A stretch of 20,000 bases of DNA from an uncultured virus (IMG/VR IMGVR_UViG_3300044858_002168). Its lineage: Duplodnaviria > Heunggongvirae > Uroviricota > Caudoviricetes. The stretch covers positions 52,508 to 72,507 of the IMG/VR virus record IMGVR_UViG_3300044858_002168; one strand, 5' to 3'. The position numbers were made by a program, and so were the translations under genes. This document shows, one piece after another, positions 6,199 to 18,743 of the stretch. Every line of letters starts with the position of its first letter. Positions within the stretch are counted from its first letter, which is position 1. Below the pieces are notes generated by a model. It was not told the DNA's origin and made no database searches. It saw only the letters and a program-made list of their open reading frames with translations.

Positions 6199-6220
6199 GG
6201 TGGTATCCTCGCTATTTCGT

Positions 6221-6249
6221 ATTATAGCACTATACCTGGACCCGCGCAA
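6221..6249 (-). promoter_or_regulatory. promoter
   Basis: TTGCGC-N17-TATAAT with extended TG. Confidence 0.75.
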
Positions 6250-6285
6250 ATCAAAAATTCTTTTGCTCATAGATTAAATTTAGAT

Positions 6286-6326
6286 AAAACAAAAGCCACC
6301 GTGCCTTTAACAGCAGGGTGGCTTTT
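6286..6326 (-). terminator. intrinsic terminator ending the RNA island
   Basis: AAAAGCCACC...GGTGGCTTTT GTTTT. Confidence 0.85.
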
Positions 6327-6332
6327 GAACCG

Positions 6333-7241
6333 ATCGAGTTTTTGTTGCCTGTAGAAATTCAGACTGGGGTAACCCCCAGTATTCTACGAGTACGTATTCG
6401 GCTTGTTGGCCAGGCGTTACAGGGATTTTCCAACCTCCCACTACAGTGTTCTAGTTTACGCTAGCTGTACGGATTTAAGTGTTTGTTTACCCGGTTGACT
6501 CCGGGGAAAGTTAGTTTACGGCAACTTCAGTCTATCACGTATGGACTCTGGGTCCCATATACCCACTGGTTTCGGTACCAACACACTAGTCGTAAAACTA
6601 TGGTGGTTGGGTTTCGAAGTACCGACTAGATTTGATTAAACCGTTTACAAGTACAGGCTGTAACTGACCTCAGGCACGGATTTTTCTGTCCAGGCTAAAG
6701 CCCCGCCCTTCCCGGTCAATCCGGAGGCCGATATGTTTTTTGACAGACACCACTCTCTCACTCTGACAGGCTGATTACTGTCCCTGGCGTGGATTTAGAT
6801 GACAGCCGTTGTGTACATAAATGCAGTGACTTCGGGCAAGTCTGACGCTACCACACATGATGCGTGTGTATCACAGTTAGTTGGTCGGTTCGGTATTTGA
6901 TTTCCAATCCTTATACCTTGGCGGAGTATTGATAAACTATTAGAGTCGCCCCTCTTTAGTTTATTCGCTAGTGGGATTCCAGACCCACATTACAGGATAT
7001 ATCCTGCTCTTGTTGTTCAGGTTGTGTGTTCCTGAGTTAGAAGATAGCTGTATTTTACAGACTTCTTTGTCTGCGAGTTTAACGTCACCTCACCGTGGAC
7101 GCGAGCATTTAAGGCAGTCTCGAAGCCGCAAATGTTTACCGTAGCCTGAAAGAAGCTGGTGTGGGTGTCATATTAACCGCCTTGCGAGCGGCCCTCACCA
7201 TCGAAGGCTTAGGGAGTAAACCTGTCTGCCGAAACCTCAAC
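6333..7241 (-). ncRNA. candidate large (~910 nt) structured ncRNA, family unrecognised
   Basis: No credible ORF; dense hairpins; 5' GTTGAGGTTT can pair with 3' AAAACTCGAT; bounded by a promoter (7567) and a terminator (6286). Confidence 0.7.
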
Positions 7242-7248
7242 AGTATAA

Positions 7249-7464
7249 TCTACGAATTAAACACTTTAGGATTTGGAGAAACGAACGTGCTGCTTTGCTC
7301 AGAGAACTTTTCCAATTATTCCGTTCGACAACGCATAGAAACTCAAATATGCCTATTCGGTTTCTAGGATCTAGTTGGGCAGTGGGCATAGACTCTTATC
7401 GCGTCTAGCGTGATCTTTGTCCTAGGCATTAGGACCTTTCTCCAAATTCTAAAGAGTTTGTAGA
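7249..7464 (-). ncRNA. ~150-nt structured insert closed by a long stem
   Basis: ctttaggatttggagaaa / tttctccaaattctaaag 18-bp stem, extendable to tctac/gtaga. Confidence 0.55.
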
Positions 7465-7566
7465 GGGCTGTGGCTCGGTGACGTAGCTTGTCCACAATTA
7501 AGTCGTATCACGTAGCAGTAATATATCGCTGTGACCGCTGACACCCTTTTCTCAACAATAAAATCT

Positions 7567-7595
7567 ATTATACACTAACGGGTAGTTACCATCAA
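7567..7595 (-). promoter_or_regulatory. promoter driving the large-RNA transcript
   Basis: TTGATG-N17-TATAAT then AGATTTTATT. Confidence 0.8.
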
Positions 7596-7610
7596 GTGTA
7601 AATTTTTATA

Positions 7611-7716
7611 CCATATTGAAACACACTGCTGGATCCTGACTACCGTTTACAACTATTAAGTCTACTGCCGTATTCCTAGTCTAGTGTAAAACTCGCCACA
7701 ATGCGTTTCAATATGG
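7611..7716 (-). repeat. inverted-repeat RNA cassette C2
   Basis: ccatattgaaacacactgc ... acaatgcgtttcaatatgg. Confidence 0.85.
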
Positions 7717-7889
7717 CAACAAGCCGATCTCCGCTATTATAGATCACATTCGTCCCCATATTACGCCGGCAGGGATAGCGGTAAGTAGTTACAGTTGATA
7801 CGTGCTGGTAGCCAATTTATCCGACTCGAACGGACAGCTTACTAATGACATGCCTGTCACTGCTTTCTCAACATCTACACTTGTTTACC
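7714..7889 (-). ncRNA. CCA-ending RNA with a T-arm, between cassettes
   Basis: GGTAAACAAG/CTTGTTGCC-A terminal stem; TCCG TTCGAGT CGGA; CCGCTAT/ATAGCGG. Confidence 0.6.
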
Positions 7890-7950
7890 ATATTGAAACA
7901 CACTATGCCACGCTCTGAACCTGGGCTCTTAGTAATATGCTTCAATATGG
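7888..7950 (-). repeat. inverted-repeat RNA cassette C3
   Basis: ccatattgaaacacacta ... taatatgcttcaatatgg. Confidence 0.85.
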
Positions 7951-8082
7951 CGACCCATTGTGGGGTGGACTTCGAAACCACCATTTCGCTGCGTTTTGAC
8001 CACTAAACTAACGTTCCTTGGAAGGACCGTACGGGATTCGAACCCATGTCTCCTGCGTTTTCCCTTAAAACTACCACGGGTC
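7948..8082 (-). ncRNA. double-elbow tRNA-like RNA without anticodon arms
   Basis: GACCCGT/ATGGGTC-G-CCA acceptor enclosing two D-arm + T-arm modules. Confidence 0.75.
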
Positions 8083-8129
8083 ATCGGAGTCATGACTTCC
8101 GACTATGTTAAAAGTTAATTACTCTTTTA

Positions 8130-8250
8130 CCATAGTTTAACACACTGCACTATCTAGATGGATCAGTAGCTGTATTCCGGAATTATCTACTATCCCCACC
8201 CTACGCTCCCGTGGACCTTTGGGAATGGCTTGCAATGTATTAAACTATGG
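8130..8250 (-). repeat. inverted-repeat RNA cassette C4
   Basis: ccatagtttaacacactgca ... tgcaatgtattaaactatgg (compensatory changes). Confidence 0.85.
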
Positions 8251-8271
8251 TTTGTCTCACACAATAAATAT

Positions 8272-8300
8272 ATTATTGCACAAACAACAAAATGTTTCAA
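8272..8300 (-). promoter_or_regulatory. promoter
   Basis: TTGAAA-N17-AATAAT, extended TG. Confidence 0.7.
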
Positions 8301-8315
8301 GACAATAATCTTTAA

Positions 8316-8450
8316 CCATATTTCAGCACACTGATTAGGGAATCGAACCCTTTACGACTGCGCTTTTGTATCACCATGACATAGTATTACCTATTGTGGC
8401 AGGATTCGAACCTGCTTCTACGTTGACCACGTCAGTGTGCTGAAATATGG
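8316..8450 (-). repeat. inverted-repeat RNA cassette C5 enclosing two T-arms
   Basis: perfect 19-bp ccatatttcagcacactga / tcagtgtgctgaaatatgg. Confidence 0.88.
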
Positions 8451-8530
8451 TCCCGTCGCGTCACTGAACGGGTACGGTTTCCATGGCCGTGAAAGGATAA
8501 CTCCACCATGTACACACCAAAACGCACTTA

Positions 8531-8651
8531 CCATATTTTAACACACTGTCGTTTCGCGTTCACTTCTAGAATCACCAGATTACGAATTTCTGGAACTTCA
8601 CAGCTTACAAGGCTGGTCGTCAAACTACTGGGGCAGTGTGCTAAAATATGG
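8531..8651 (-). repeat. inverted-repeat RNA cassette C6
   Basis: ccatattttaacacactg ... cagtgtgctaaaatatgg; begins with the CCA of tRNA-Glu. Confidence 0.85.
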
Positions 8652-8723
8652 TACTCAGTACGGGAGTCGAACCCGTCTTTCCGGCGTGAAAGGCCAGCGT
8701 CCTAACCAATAGACGAACCGAGC
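8649..8723 (-). tRNA. trnE: tRNA-Glu(UUC)
   Basis: GCTCGGT/ACTGAGT-A-CCA, CTGGC CTTTCAC GCCGG, ACGGG TTCGACT CCCGT. Confidence 0.95.
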
Positions 8724-8868
8724 ATGTTACTGGTTACGTGTCCAGTGTACCAGCGCCAGGTACCGCGACAGCCGCTCATTGAGGGATAACACCGTGCTGG
8801 CTAGGCACTAGCGGATATTTGACGCATATCTACGGTCAACGCTGAGGCGGTTGACATACCTACGAGTC

Positions 8869-8982
8869 GGGTCTTTCTTCTCACATTGTGATGCTACCAA
8901 GCAGTTTCCGGACTAAAACGTTGGGCGTAAGCTAAGGGTCGTTCCTCTCACATTAAGATGCTATCGGGCACAATGCCAGACC
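8869..8982 (-). repeat. two diverged copies of a ~46-nt structured motif
   Basis: 8869-8914 and 8936-8982 share GTCYGG...TGC....TAGCATC..AATGTGAGARGAAMGACCC. Confidence 0.7.
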
Positions 8983-9002
8983 TATATCACCCAACAAACT
9001 CT

Positions 9003-9031
9003 ATTATACAGGGTTGACAATCGCTTTTCAA
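9003..9031 (-). promoter_or_regulatory. promoter
   Basis: TTGAAA-N17-TATAAT. Confidence 0.8.
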
Positions 9032-9070
9032 GACAACAATTATCAACCCTGTACAACAGGGAATCGAAAC

Positions 9071-9272
9071 AGACCTTGGATAGGTAACGACTCCTATCTG
9101 TATCTAGCTTTCATGGCTGCCACTCACATACTGCCCTTTCCACGTCTAGCTCAGAGAGCTACTCGCGCTGATATTCAGAGAAAATCAGCTCTATTGCCAC
9201 ATGGATAGTGCCTATGACTGTTGGGGCTTACCACTACCGATATTTTTGTCGCACAAGGATCGCCAAGGGTCT
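9071..9272 (-). ncRNA. candidate ~200-nt structured RNA
   Basis: AGACC(C)TTGG/CCAAGGTCT closing stem, internal hairpins, own promoter. Confidence 0.5.
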
Positions 9273-9291
9273 CCTCATCAACAGAAACATT

Positions 9292-9320
9292 ATTATGACA
9301 CAAAAGGCAACAGACTTCAA
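9292..9320 (-). promoter_or_regulatory. promoter
   Basis: TTGAAG-N17-CATAAT. Confidence 0.7.
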
Positions 9321-9344
9321 ATGAAAATTTCTGTTGCCTTGACC

Positions 9345-9647
9345 TCAGAACCGGGCTGCGATCAACACCAGTTGGTCGCGGCTGCACTTGGAGAGGCTGT
9401 CCAACACACCGGCCTCAAAGCCCATGCCCGCCTCGATACGAGCCACCAGGTCCTCCTTGGTCAGCCGGCTGGAAGCAGTCTTGGTCTTGGCCACGTACAC
9501 GCCCTCGCGGCTCAGCTTGGCAACCACTGATCGAACAGTACGGCTCAGTTCGCGGGCAATCATTTCCACAGGCATACCTGCGGTGTACCGAGCCACCAGG
9601 TCTTGGGTTTGTTCAGGGGTGTAGTTCACATTCTTTGCTTCAGACAT
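9345..9647 (-). CDS. HTH-like DNA-binding protein, T5 A2/D3-like (paralog 1)
   Basis: NYTPEQT...Y..G..VE.IA.....TVRSVVAKLSREGVY; AAGGAG RBS; A2 resemblance from recall. Confidence 0.75.
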   Translation of the reverse strand: MSEAKNVNYTPEQTQDLVARYTAGMPVEMIARELSRTVRSVVAKLSREGVYVAKTKTASSRLTKEDLVARIEAGMGFEAGVLDSLSKCSRDQLVLIAARF

Positions 9648-18645: not shown

Positions 18646-18729
18646 TTTTGCACTGGCGCAGCTTTTGCACTGGCGCAGCTTTTGCACTGGCGCAAACTTT
18701 TGAGTTTGCCAAGGTTTTGCACTGGCGCG
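18646..18729. repeat. four direct repeats TTTTGCACTGGCGC
   Basis: Copies at 18646, 18663, 18680 (17-bp period) and 18715. Confidence 0.95.
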
Positions 18730-18743
18730 GCGGGGCTGGCAAC

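Follow-up and report, generated by a model that had tools for sequence, protein, structure and literature searches.

The locus described here lies in a 20,000-nucleotide stretch of DNA, hereafter the window, which makes up the last 20 kb of the 72.5-kb IMG/VR record IMGVR_UViG_3300044858_002168 of an uncultured tailed virus. On its minus strand the window carries six hairpin units, here called cassettes, in each of which a pair of conserved arms encloses an interior (the cargo). The cassettes are found at positions 2652-2742 (C1), 7611-7716 (C2), 7888-7950 (C3), 8130-8250 (C4), 8316-8450 (C5) and 8531-8651 (C6), and the minus strand has no open reading frame (ORF) of 60 amino acids or more between approximately 6350 and 9175. 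The initial annotation of this DNA, made from the letters of the sequence, had placed six copies of a shared stem around unrelated interiors at these coordinates. Both the copies and their arrangement were recovered: a degenerate pattern of the arms has nine matches in the window as against 0.00 expected from 200 shuffles, and none in the record outside the window.

When folded as minus-strand RNA, each unit has a branched interior that is closed by one unbroken stem of 18-21 bp. The minimum free energies range from -26 to -53 kcal/mol with z-scores from -3.3 to -5.8, and zero to two of 200 shuffled sequences equal them. The fold is more stable on the minus strand in four of the six units, C1 and C6 being marginally better on the plus strand. 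Counted outside the 17-nt arms, the interiors of C1 to C6 measure 57, 72, 29, 87, 101 and 87 nt and belong to six different sequence clusters. C1 is closed by 19 bp (one A.C, one G-U), C5 has a perfect 20-bp stem around a multi-branch cargo and C4 carries a compensated variant of the arms. Over 17 stem positions in six copies there are nine G-U pairs and one A.C mismatch on the minus strand, and the plus strand would show the reverse. C4 departs from the consensus on both arms at stem positions 6, 8 and 9 and C5 at positions 8, 9 and 11, in each case in a compensatory manner. Two further remarks of the initial annotation, namely that C4 and C5 carry compensatory changes and that the imperfections of the stems are mostly G-U pairs of the minus strand, agree with these counts, even though C1 and C6 fold slightly better on the plus strand.

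A conserved helix in uncultured viral contigs

At least 131 stretches of uncultured viral contigs, 4 kb to 400 kb in size, contain an exact copy of the 17-base 3' arm. In nearly all of these matches the partner arm lies upstream, and the sequence between the two arms is unrelated. Together with the window, the arm-matched loci among the matches listed yielded 265 unique cassettes, of which 257 were oriented for the statistics on stem and cargo. Pairing extends over stem positions 0-18, which are paired in 80-100% of the 257 cassettes (the lowest value within positions 1-17 is 84% at position 8, G-U pairs included). From position 19 inward pairing falls to approximately 28-47%, which is the background level, so the helix ends sharply; its modal length is 18-20 bp. 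Covarying pairs are found at positions 6, 7, 8, 9, 11, 12 and 14, to which position 16 can be added. Positions 3-7, 10, 15 and 17 are identical in 96-100% of the cassettes, and 77% retain a U.G wobble at position 16. Within a single cargo family, the foot of the stem covaries from CCA/TGG to CTT/AAG and to TCT/AGA.

The strand on which the helix is richer in G-U pairs is the strand of the nearby tRNAs in 190 of the 265 unique cassettes; it is the opposite one in nine, the two strands are tied in 46 and no tRNA is near in 20. In total there are 450 G-U pairs on the tRNA-sense strand and 61 on the other. This asymmetry is not built into the sampling, because the seeds could fall on either strand. 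The pairing is under selection as RNA on the tRNA-sense strand, and in this form the earlier proposal that selection acts on RNA pairing was supported (190 versus 9 cassettes).

No counterpart of the family was found in cultured phages by megablast of positions 7400-9100 and blastn of C3 against 50,697 phage records. A two-arm pattern run over 185,579 cellular species genomes gave one match, on a 1,478-bp contig binned to a metagenome-assembled genome of Ca. Planktophila; a single contig of this size is insufficient to name a host. In a covariance-model scan of the whole window against Rfam 15 only three tRNAs were at or above the gathering threshold, and nothing relevant appeared at E≤5 over positions 6200-9400 or at E≤1 over 14 cassettes of two other loci (L081 and L027). 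This includes ribozyme families, of which none matched in the window region or the 14 scanned cassettes. The match to a described Rfam motif that, according to the initial annotation, would remove novelty was not found in these scans. The arm sequences occur in no paper searched, and topical searches, which did not cover the subscription-only literature on phage T5, returned no description of the family. Neither Rfam nor the searched papers contain the arm family, but the kind of element is already represented by the stable RNAs of T5, discussed below.

Stems of the same build with other arm sequences exist as well. Outside the window, between positions 44357 and 51498 of the record contig, there are four more stem-closed units whose arms differ from those of the cassettes. 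Two of these begin on the CCA of tRNA-Lys and of tRNA-Thr and the other two lie within the array; three were folded (z from -3.9 to -7.6), and a CACAC/GTGTG box close to the stem top is retained in three of the four.

Position in tRNA arrays

The loci are dense tRNA arrays, and the CCA end is encoded by 743 of their 766 unique tRNAs. A stem scoring at least 13 out of 15 starts exactly on this CCA in 98 of the 766 array tRNAs, in comparison to five and one at the offset controls. Among the CCA-anchored stems scoring at least 12.5 (n=101), 89 have the main arm sequence and 12 have other arms. On the distal side, 21 cassette calls have a downstream tRNA whose first bases are the terminal GG of the 3' arm. 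The initial annotation had described the stem as keyed to the CCA of the preceding RNA. This holds for the registers of C1 on tRNA-Leu and of C6 on tRNA-Glu, but not strictly: 198 of the 257 cassettes (77%) start with CCA, and the starts TTA, CTA, CTT and TCT covary with the 3' arm. The end of the 3' arm is more constant than the 5' CCA, since TGG is found in 91% and a T following it in 84%. The element that precedes the cassette (n=257) is a tRNA called by ARAGORN in 90 cases, another cassette within 6 nt in eight, a promoter-like site in nine and something else in 150. A tRNA-like acceptor helix ahead of cassettes that have no preceding tRNA gave a weak signal, with 33 of 91 as against 18-26 of 91 in controls. 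In locus L081 five cassettes form a head-to-tail series separated by 3-nt linkers, with 5' arms that begin with TTA and form U.G pairs with the conserved GG. Anchoring on CCA is common and not obligatory. Nor is the cassette a general requirement for tRNA maturation, because 87% of the array tRNAs (668 of 766) have none; the idea that it serves as a general tRNA-maturing device has to be given up.

In the window, the first three stem bases of C1 are the CCA of tRNA-Leu(TAG), called by ARAGORN at 2740-2816 on the minus strand, and C6 begins on the CCA of tRNA-Glu(TTC) (8649-8723, minus strand, ARAGORN). The remaining RNAs between the cassettes, all on the minus strand as well, are less easily classified. 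An RNA of approximately 170 nt at 7714-7887 has a 7-bp terminal helix and a GCCA tail leading into C2, with a T-loop-like hairpin inside. The RNA at 7948-8129, called the double-elbow RNA, holds two T-arm-like hairpins within a terminal helix and has a GCCA tail leading into C3; it gave a weak partial tRNA match at 8031-8073 in the Rfam scan. The 82-nt spacer RNA at 8448-8530 has a terminal hairpin and ACCA leading into C5. The proposed CCA ends of these three RNAs are present in so far as a helix, one base and CCA stand at the end of each, but the folds are no more stable than those of shuffled sequences (z of -0.2 for the double-elbow RNA). C4 is preceded not by an RNA end but by a promoter-like site just upstream of it (8272-8300, minus strand, 10 of 12 consensus matches), and C2 is the last unit ahead of a further promoter-like site at 7595. 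Upstream of tRNA-Glu there is an ORF-free leader on the minus strand (8724-9031), which begins at a promoter-like site at 9031-9003 (11 of 12 matches). Between this site and the tRNA lies a 35-nt direct repeat (8869-8903 and 8936-8970) with 80% identity.

Small ORFs are embedded between the tRNAs of other arrays in the same direction. They encode an RNase H-like protein (PF04308, 15 loci), a metallophosphoesterase (12 loci), a 173-amino-acid family of unassigned type (11 loci) and a CDA-fold deaminase that could be dCMP- or TadA-like (11 loci). Loci with embedded ORFs include L014, L018, L028 and L036. L014 also has a permuted transfer-messenger RNA (tmRNA) and L042 a group I intron, and genes for HNH and GIY-YIG endonucleases are present in the arrays.

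Cargo

The 257 interiors form 177 clusters, 140 of which are singletons, and their median length is 56 nt; the description of the cassette as a standard stem module with variable cargo is supported by these numbers. Some cargos are clearly under selection. The 29-nt cargo of C3 is near-invariant in eight contexts, all with different flanks. The cargo of C4 recurs in locus L061 in consensus arms, the two sets of arms differing by compensatory changes at positions 6, 8, 9 and 19. In a cargo family of six members, 12 of 39 pairs are maintained through double changes.

The functions proposed for the cargos in the initial annotation, guides or decoys, gained no ground. For the six window cargos no antisense target beyond chance was found in the phage's own record, and no partner protein turned up. 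The one real match of that search lies in the cargo of C5, where 20 nt repeat, in the same sense, the T-arm of the phage's own tRNA-Pro. A tRNA-like cargo is not the general rule, a canonical T-arm being present in just 10 of 252 cargos. No cargo matched Rfam in the window or in the 14 cassettes scanned at E≤1.

Exchange at the arms

Natural variants of the locus are seen in contigs assembled from four RNA libraries of related populations. In one type of contig position 7883 is joined to 8126, with the loss of the double-elbow RNA and C3; two runs contain this join and two others have loose ends that match it, and nine bases are shared at the joint. Another contig joins 8231 to 8633 and drops everything from the cargo of C6 through the 5' arm of C4. 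Others diverge at 7620, within C2, where the contig continues with other cargo, and at 8629-8633. Every breakpoint is at an arm edge. Contigs from these libraries also cover 7717-7904. The word depth over the cassettes is 3-16, with some parts uncovered, and we read the joins as genome variants of related phages, the contigs as such being unable to separate RNA variants from DNA variants. The position of the breakpoints at arm edges, together with the occurrence of the same cargos in unrelated flanks, shows that the arms are where units and cargos are acquired, lost and exchanged.

The same RNA libraries cover a different element of the window at much higher depth. This is an ORF-free transcription unit of approximately 1.27 kb on the minus strand (6296-7595), which runs from a promoter-like site at 7595-7567 to an intrinsic terminator at 6316-6296. 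Contigs from four runs cover positions 6410-7130 of it at a word depth of 170-2400, and in some of them the segment 6633-6784 is replaced. The whole unit is found in two other viral contigs (L146 and L147) at 75-86% identity with a variable middle. It has no match in Rfam and no similarity to RNA X of phage T5, which is analogously placed. A structure for it was not supported by the three available sequences, which are too few, with double changes in 7 of 165 pairs and a covariation term of +4.2. Inside the unit there is a 23-nt inverted repeat (7259-7281 and 7437-7459; 91% complementary, 155 nt between the arms), which marks a segment closed by a long stem with arms unlike those of the cassettes.

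The phage and its relation to T5

The record is rated 69% complete. It contains 21 tRNA genes and a permuted tmRNA (tag ANDSVYALAA) at positions 44915-45306 of the contig, outside the window, all on the minus strand. Its replication module comprises a family A DNA polymerase, primase, DnaB-like helicase, flap endonuclease and an SbcCD-like pair, together with NAD ligase, class II ribonucleotide reductase, ThyX and PhoH. Over 98% of its length, the DNA polymerase has 49% identity to its counterparts in T5-like phages, among them Pectobacterium My1, Escherichia EC105 and Vibrio Gary; the phage is a distant relative of T5. DNA runs labelled as lake water contain 0.95-1.00 of the sampled words from the window stretch. 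Elsewhere in the window, an ORF at 694-1317 on the minus strand has collagen-like 9-nt periodic repeats and matches phage tail-fibre families, and at 18646-18731 there are four overlapping tandem copies of a 17-nt unit (TTTTGCACTGGCGCAGC-like), which are possibly iterons or operator sites.

In the T5 record AY543070, the tRNA region includes RNAs I, III, IV, 2H and X, annotated as "stable RNA with unknown functions" (misc_RNA), as well as RNA 1 and RNA 2, given as tRNA-like stable RNAs, and RNA 3, a putative tRNA-like RNA. RNA I ends in GCCA; RNA III starts four bases on and ends where tRNA-His starts. The 12-bp closing stem of RNA III is extended by 7 bp from the flanks into a precursor helix of 19 bp that reaches from the CCA of RNA I into the first bases of tRNA-His. 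Given the annotated ends, RNA III has a 3' overhang of 2 nt, formed by its two terminal bases, which are unpaired. Another T5 hairpin, of 109 nt and unannotated, lies between promoter P14a and tRNA-Tyr (35426-35534 of the T5 record; 13427-13535 of L145). It is paired at 17 of 19 stem positions, the 3' arm terminates with CAAATATGG on the tRNA's first GG, and it folds with a z of -7.0. RNA IV and RNA 2H are also inside longer stems. The ends of the T5 stable RNAs have reportedly been determined by RNA sequencing.

Similarly to the cassettes, the T5 stable RNAs are found in the tRNA region of a related phage, in the direction of the tRNAs, and RNA III has its ends in a long helix that abuts the ends of neighbouring RNAs; HNH endonuclease genes are interspersed in the arrays of T5 and of the lake phages alike. 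In T5, however, they are few and each has its own arms, whereas one arm sequence in the lake phages serves at least 177 cargo families, spread over at least 131 contig stretches. At the nucleotide level blastn of window positions 6290-9100 against the T5 tRNA region gave just 15-20-nt matches. The arms of RNA III share a short TTGAA/TTCAA core with the lake consensus, and T5 and lake arms also have in common the 3' end CAA(A)TATGG; homology of the arms is plausible rather than proven. With the T5 stable RNAs, elements of this kind were already on record.

A proposed processing stalk, its cargo and alternative explanations

We propose that the cassettes are small structured RNA genes of stable-RNA operons, freed from the transcript by an RNase III-type stalk, and that the arms double as recombination points at which cargo is swapped. 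In our judgement this proposal stands at about an even chance of being correct. On minus-strand transcription the two arms would pair into a helix of approximately 19 bp, the foot of which would be flush with the 3' end of the preceding RNA (usually CCA) and with the 5' end of the following one. A nuclease specific for double-stranded RNA (dsRNA), most likely the host RNase III, would then cut some 6-7 bp above the foot with a 2-nt stagger. By analogy to T5 RNA III, the predicted cut on the 5' arm separates stem positions 6 and 7, and that on the 3' arm is offset by 2 nt. Exonucleases would trim the upstream RNA to its CCA, RNase P would define the downstream tRNA where there is one, and the cargo would persist as a discrete RNA closed by approximately 12 bp. 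At the DNA level the same arms would serve as short homologies for the exchange, gain and loss of cargos or whole units among related phages. The helix, its strand and fixed length, the diversity and conservation of the cargos and the breakpoints at the arms are observed; what we infer beyond them is the nuclease, where it cuts, how stable its product is and the role of the cargos.

The identification of the stem as an RNase III-like handle, made already in the initial annotation, remains the best guess given the fixed length of the helix and the annotated 2-nt 3' overhang of T5 RNA III. Scans with Pfam and PHROGs of the window ORFs, the 54 further ORFs of the record and 17 recurrent flank families recognised no RNase III, RNA ligase, CCA enzyme, Ro/TROVE or dsRNA-binding domain. 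Use of a host enzyme fits, because no phage RNA-processing enzyme was recognised among the 67 ORFs scanned (54 of the record and 13 of the window). It is well established that the 16S and 23S rRNAs are released from helices formed by their flanks, which RNase III cuts on both strands. The precursor of the Bacillus subtilis small cytoplasmic RNA is reported to behave alike: its flanks pair into a long helix, both strands are cut and the enclosed RNA is released (PMC1935012). In the cassettes, too, the flanks of an RNA form about two turns of uninterrupted dsRNA (positions 0-18, modal length 18-20 bp). They differ from these stalks in that the enclosed RNAs are small (29-101 nt in the window), diverse and interchangeable, that the sequence of the stalk is conserved across unrelated cargos and that cleavage is here a prediction.

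Several points weigh against this proposal. RNase III has little sequence specificity and on its own fails to explain the stem positions that are 96-100% identical or the wobble kept at position 16; constant recombination between cassettes, or a specificity factor, may account for the conservation of the arms. Two of the six window cassettes, C1 and C6, fold slightly better as plus-strand RNA, and G-T pairs are tolerated in hairpins of single-stranded DNA too. The RNA evidence consists of assembled contigs of low depth (3-16), uninformative on ends, strand and level. Resemblance of the T5 arms to the lake consensus is partial, and the ends of T5 RNA III are those of a database annotation. Finally, with the record 69% complete, a partner encoded by the phage could have been missed.

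An unlikely alternative, in our estimate, is that the hairpins are pure punctuation, that is, spacers or insulators that part stable RNAs, block exonucleases or Rho or mark a cut, with the interiors as filler. The placement of cassettes exactly between RNA ends would suit such a role, as would the extreme diversity of the cargos, with 140 singletons among 177 clusters and no Rfam match for any cargo scanned. It is difficult to reconcile with cargos that are conserved far beyond neutrality in unrelated flanks or covary internally, with the 668 of 766 tRNA junctions that do without a cassette, and with five tandem cassettes whose 3-nt linkers leave nothing between them to separate. The conservation of the arms beyond the needs of pairing, by contrast, is what would be expected if the stem were a sequence-specific handle, bound by a protein of phage or host that makes use of the cargo or presents it in the manner of the Ro-binding stem of Y RNAs or of a scaffold, cleavage being secondary. 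The nearly invariant positions and the position-16 wobble, the TGG and T at the end of the 3' arm that exceed the 5' CCA in constancy, and the CACAC/GTGTG box kept near the top in other arm families of the same genome all point in this direction. Against it, arms of quite different sequence exist (12 of the 101 CCA-anchored stems), and no protein family is common to the window genome and the array-embedded families of other loci except a 5'-3' exonuclease. TROVE/Ro, RNA ligase and dsRNA-binding domains went unrecognised in the scanned ORFs, and the best hit of YrlA (RF02553) had 20 bits as against a cut-off of 69 and lay over tRNAs. We consider a protein handle of this kind improbable.

The mobility of the cassettes raises the question of whether they are DNA-level mobile or recombination elements, such as miniature inverted-repeat transposable elements (MITEs) or integron attC sites, whose inverted repeats act as DNA or single-stranded DNA hairpins, folding of the RNA being incidental. 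Whole cassettes do occur in unrelated flanks, the breakpoints of natural variants coincide with arm edges, the arrays contain genes for HNH and GIY-YIG endonucleases and single-stranded DNA tolerates G-T pairs. There is, however, no sign of target-site duplication: identity of the 3-nt flanks was found in 8 of 257 cassettes versus 4.4 by permutation, and 4-nt identity in none. The strand of the wobble pairs follows tRNA transcription by 190 to 9, the stems are in exact register with CCA and with tRNA 5' ends, and T5 RNA III is annotated as an RNA product. MITEs can be set aside on account of the missing duplication and of interiors that are unrelated, falling into 177 clusters. An attC site does not fit either, as no integrase or transposase is found among the annotated flank ORF families or the 54 record ORFs and the attC core-box consensus is not evident in the arms by eye. 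In our opinion a DNA element is a very improbable explanation. In the shuffling cassettes of T4-type phages, built of a promoter and a stem-loop, as in integron attC sites, short conserved repeats flank variable modules and are exchange points between genomes. Those repeats flank protein genes and act as DNA, whereas the repeats of a cassette pair with each other as a single RNA helix that encloses a non-coding cargo.

Two further systems invite comparison. The conserved closing stem of Y RNA and YrlA holds a variable, sometimes tRNA-like module and resembles the cassette in this respect, but a YrlA score far below the cut-off, the lack of a Ro/TROVE gene in the scans and the rarity of canonical T-arms in the cargos set the two apart. 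Theta ribozymes are HDV-like (hepatitis delta virus-like) self-cleaving pseudoknots of gut phages that lie directly after phage tRNAs and have been proposed to define the tRNA 3' end, in phages of which 4.5% of the tRNAs encode CCA (PMC10879173). The cassettes are similar in being RNA elements directly 3' of phage tRNAs and different in that 743 of 766 tRNAs here encode CCA and the element is a plain helix with variable cargo that matched no ribozyme family in the Rfam scans.

Significance for phage tRNA arrays

A more far-reaching version of the stalk-and-cargo proposal is that the 19-bp helix is a universal socket, a portable module of conserved sequence for expression and processing, integron-like but for non-coding RNA, with which freshwater phages ranging from T5-like to jumbo ones would express, protect and horizontally swap hundreds of small structured RNAs that are unrelated to one another. 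The cargos could then be effectors directed at the host, for example binders or decoys acting against tRNA-targeting defences or RNA-processing enzymes, and the conserved TGG-T tail of the 3' arm might be freed by processing to pair with ACCA ends. We regard this version as speculative and rather doubtful.

If the cassettes are indeed small RNA genes released by a processing stalk, the tRNA arrays of phages would also hold a large repertoire of small structured RNAs, at least 177 cargo families of them, none of those scanned having a match in Rfam and all built on one standard helix, and a search for the arms would be a simple rule for finding such RNAs. The proposal would further provide a link to the tractable model phage T5, whose RNA III is listed as a stable RNA of unknown function, and would supply a processing model that is concrete and open to test. 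It would also mean that the arms of an RNA helix double as recombination handles by which non-coding genes are shuffled between phages.

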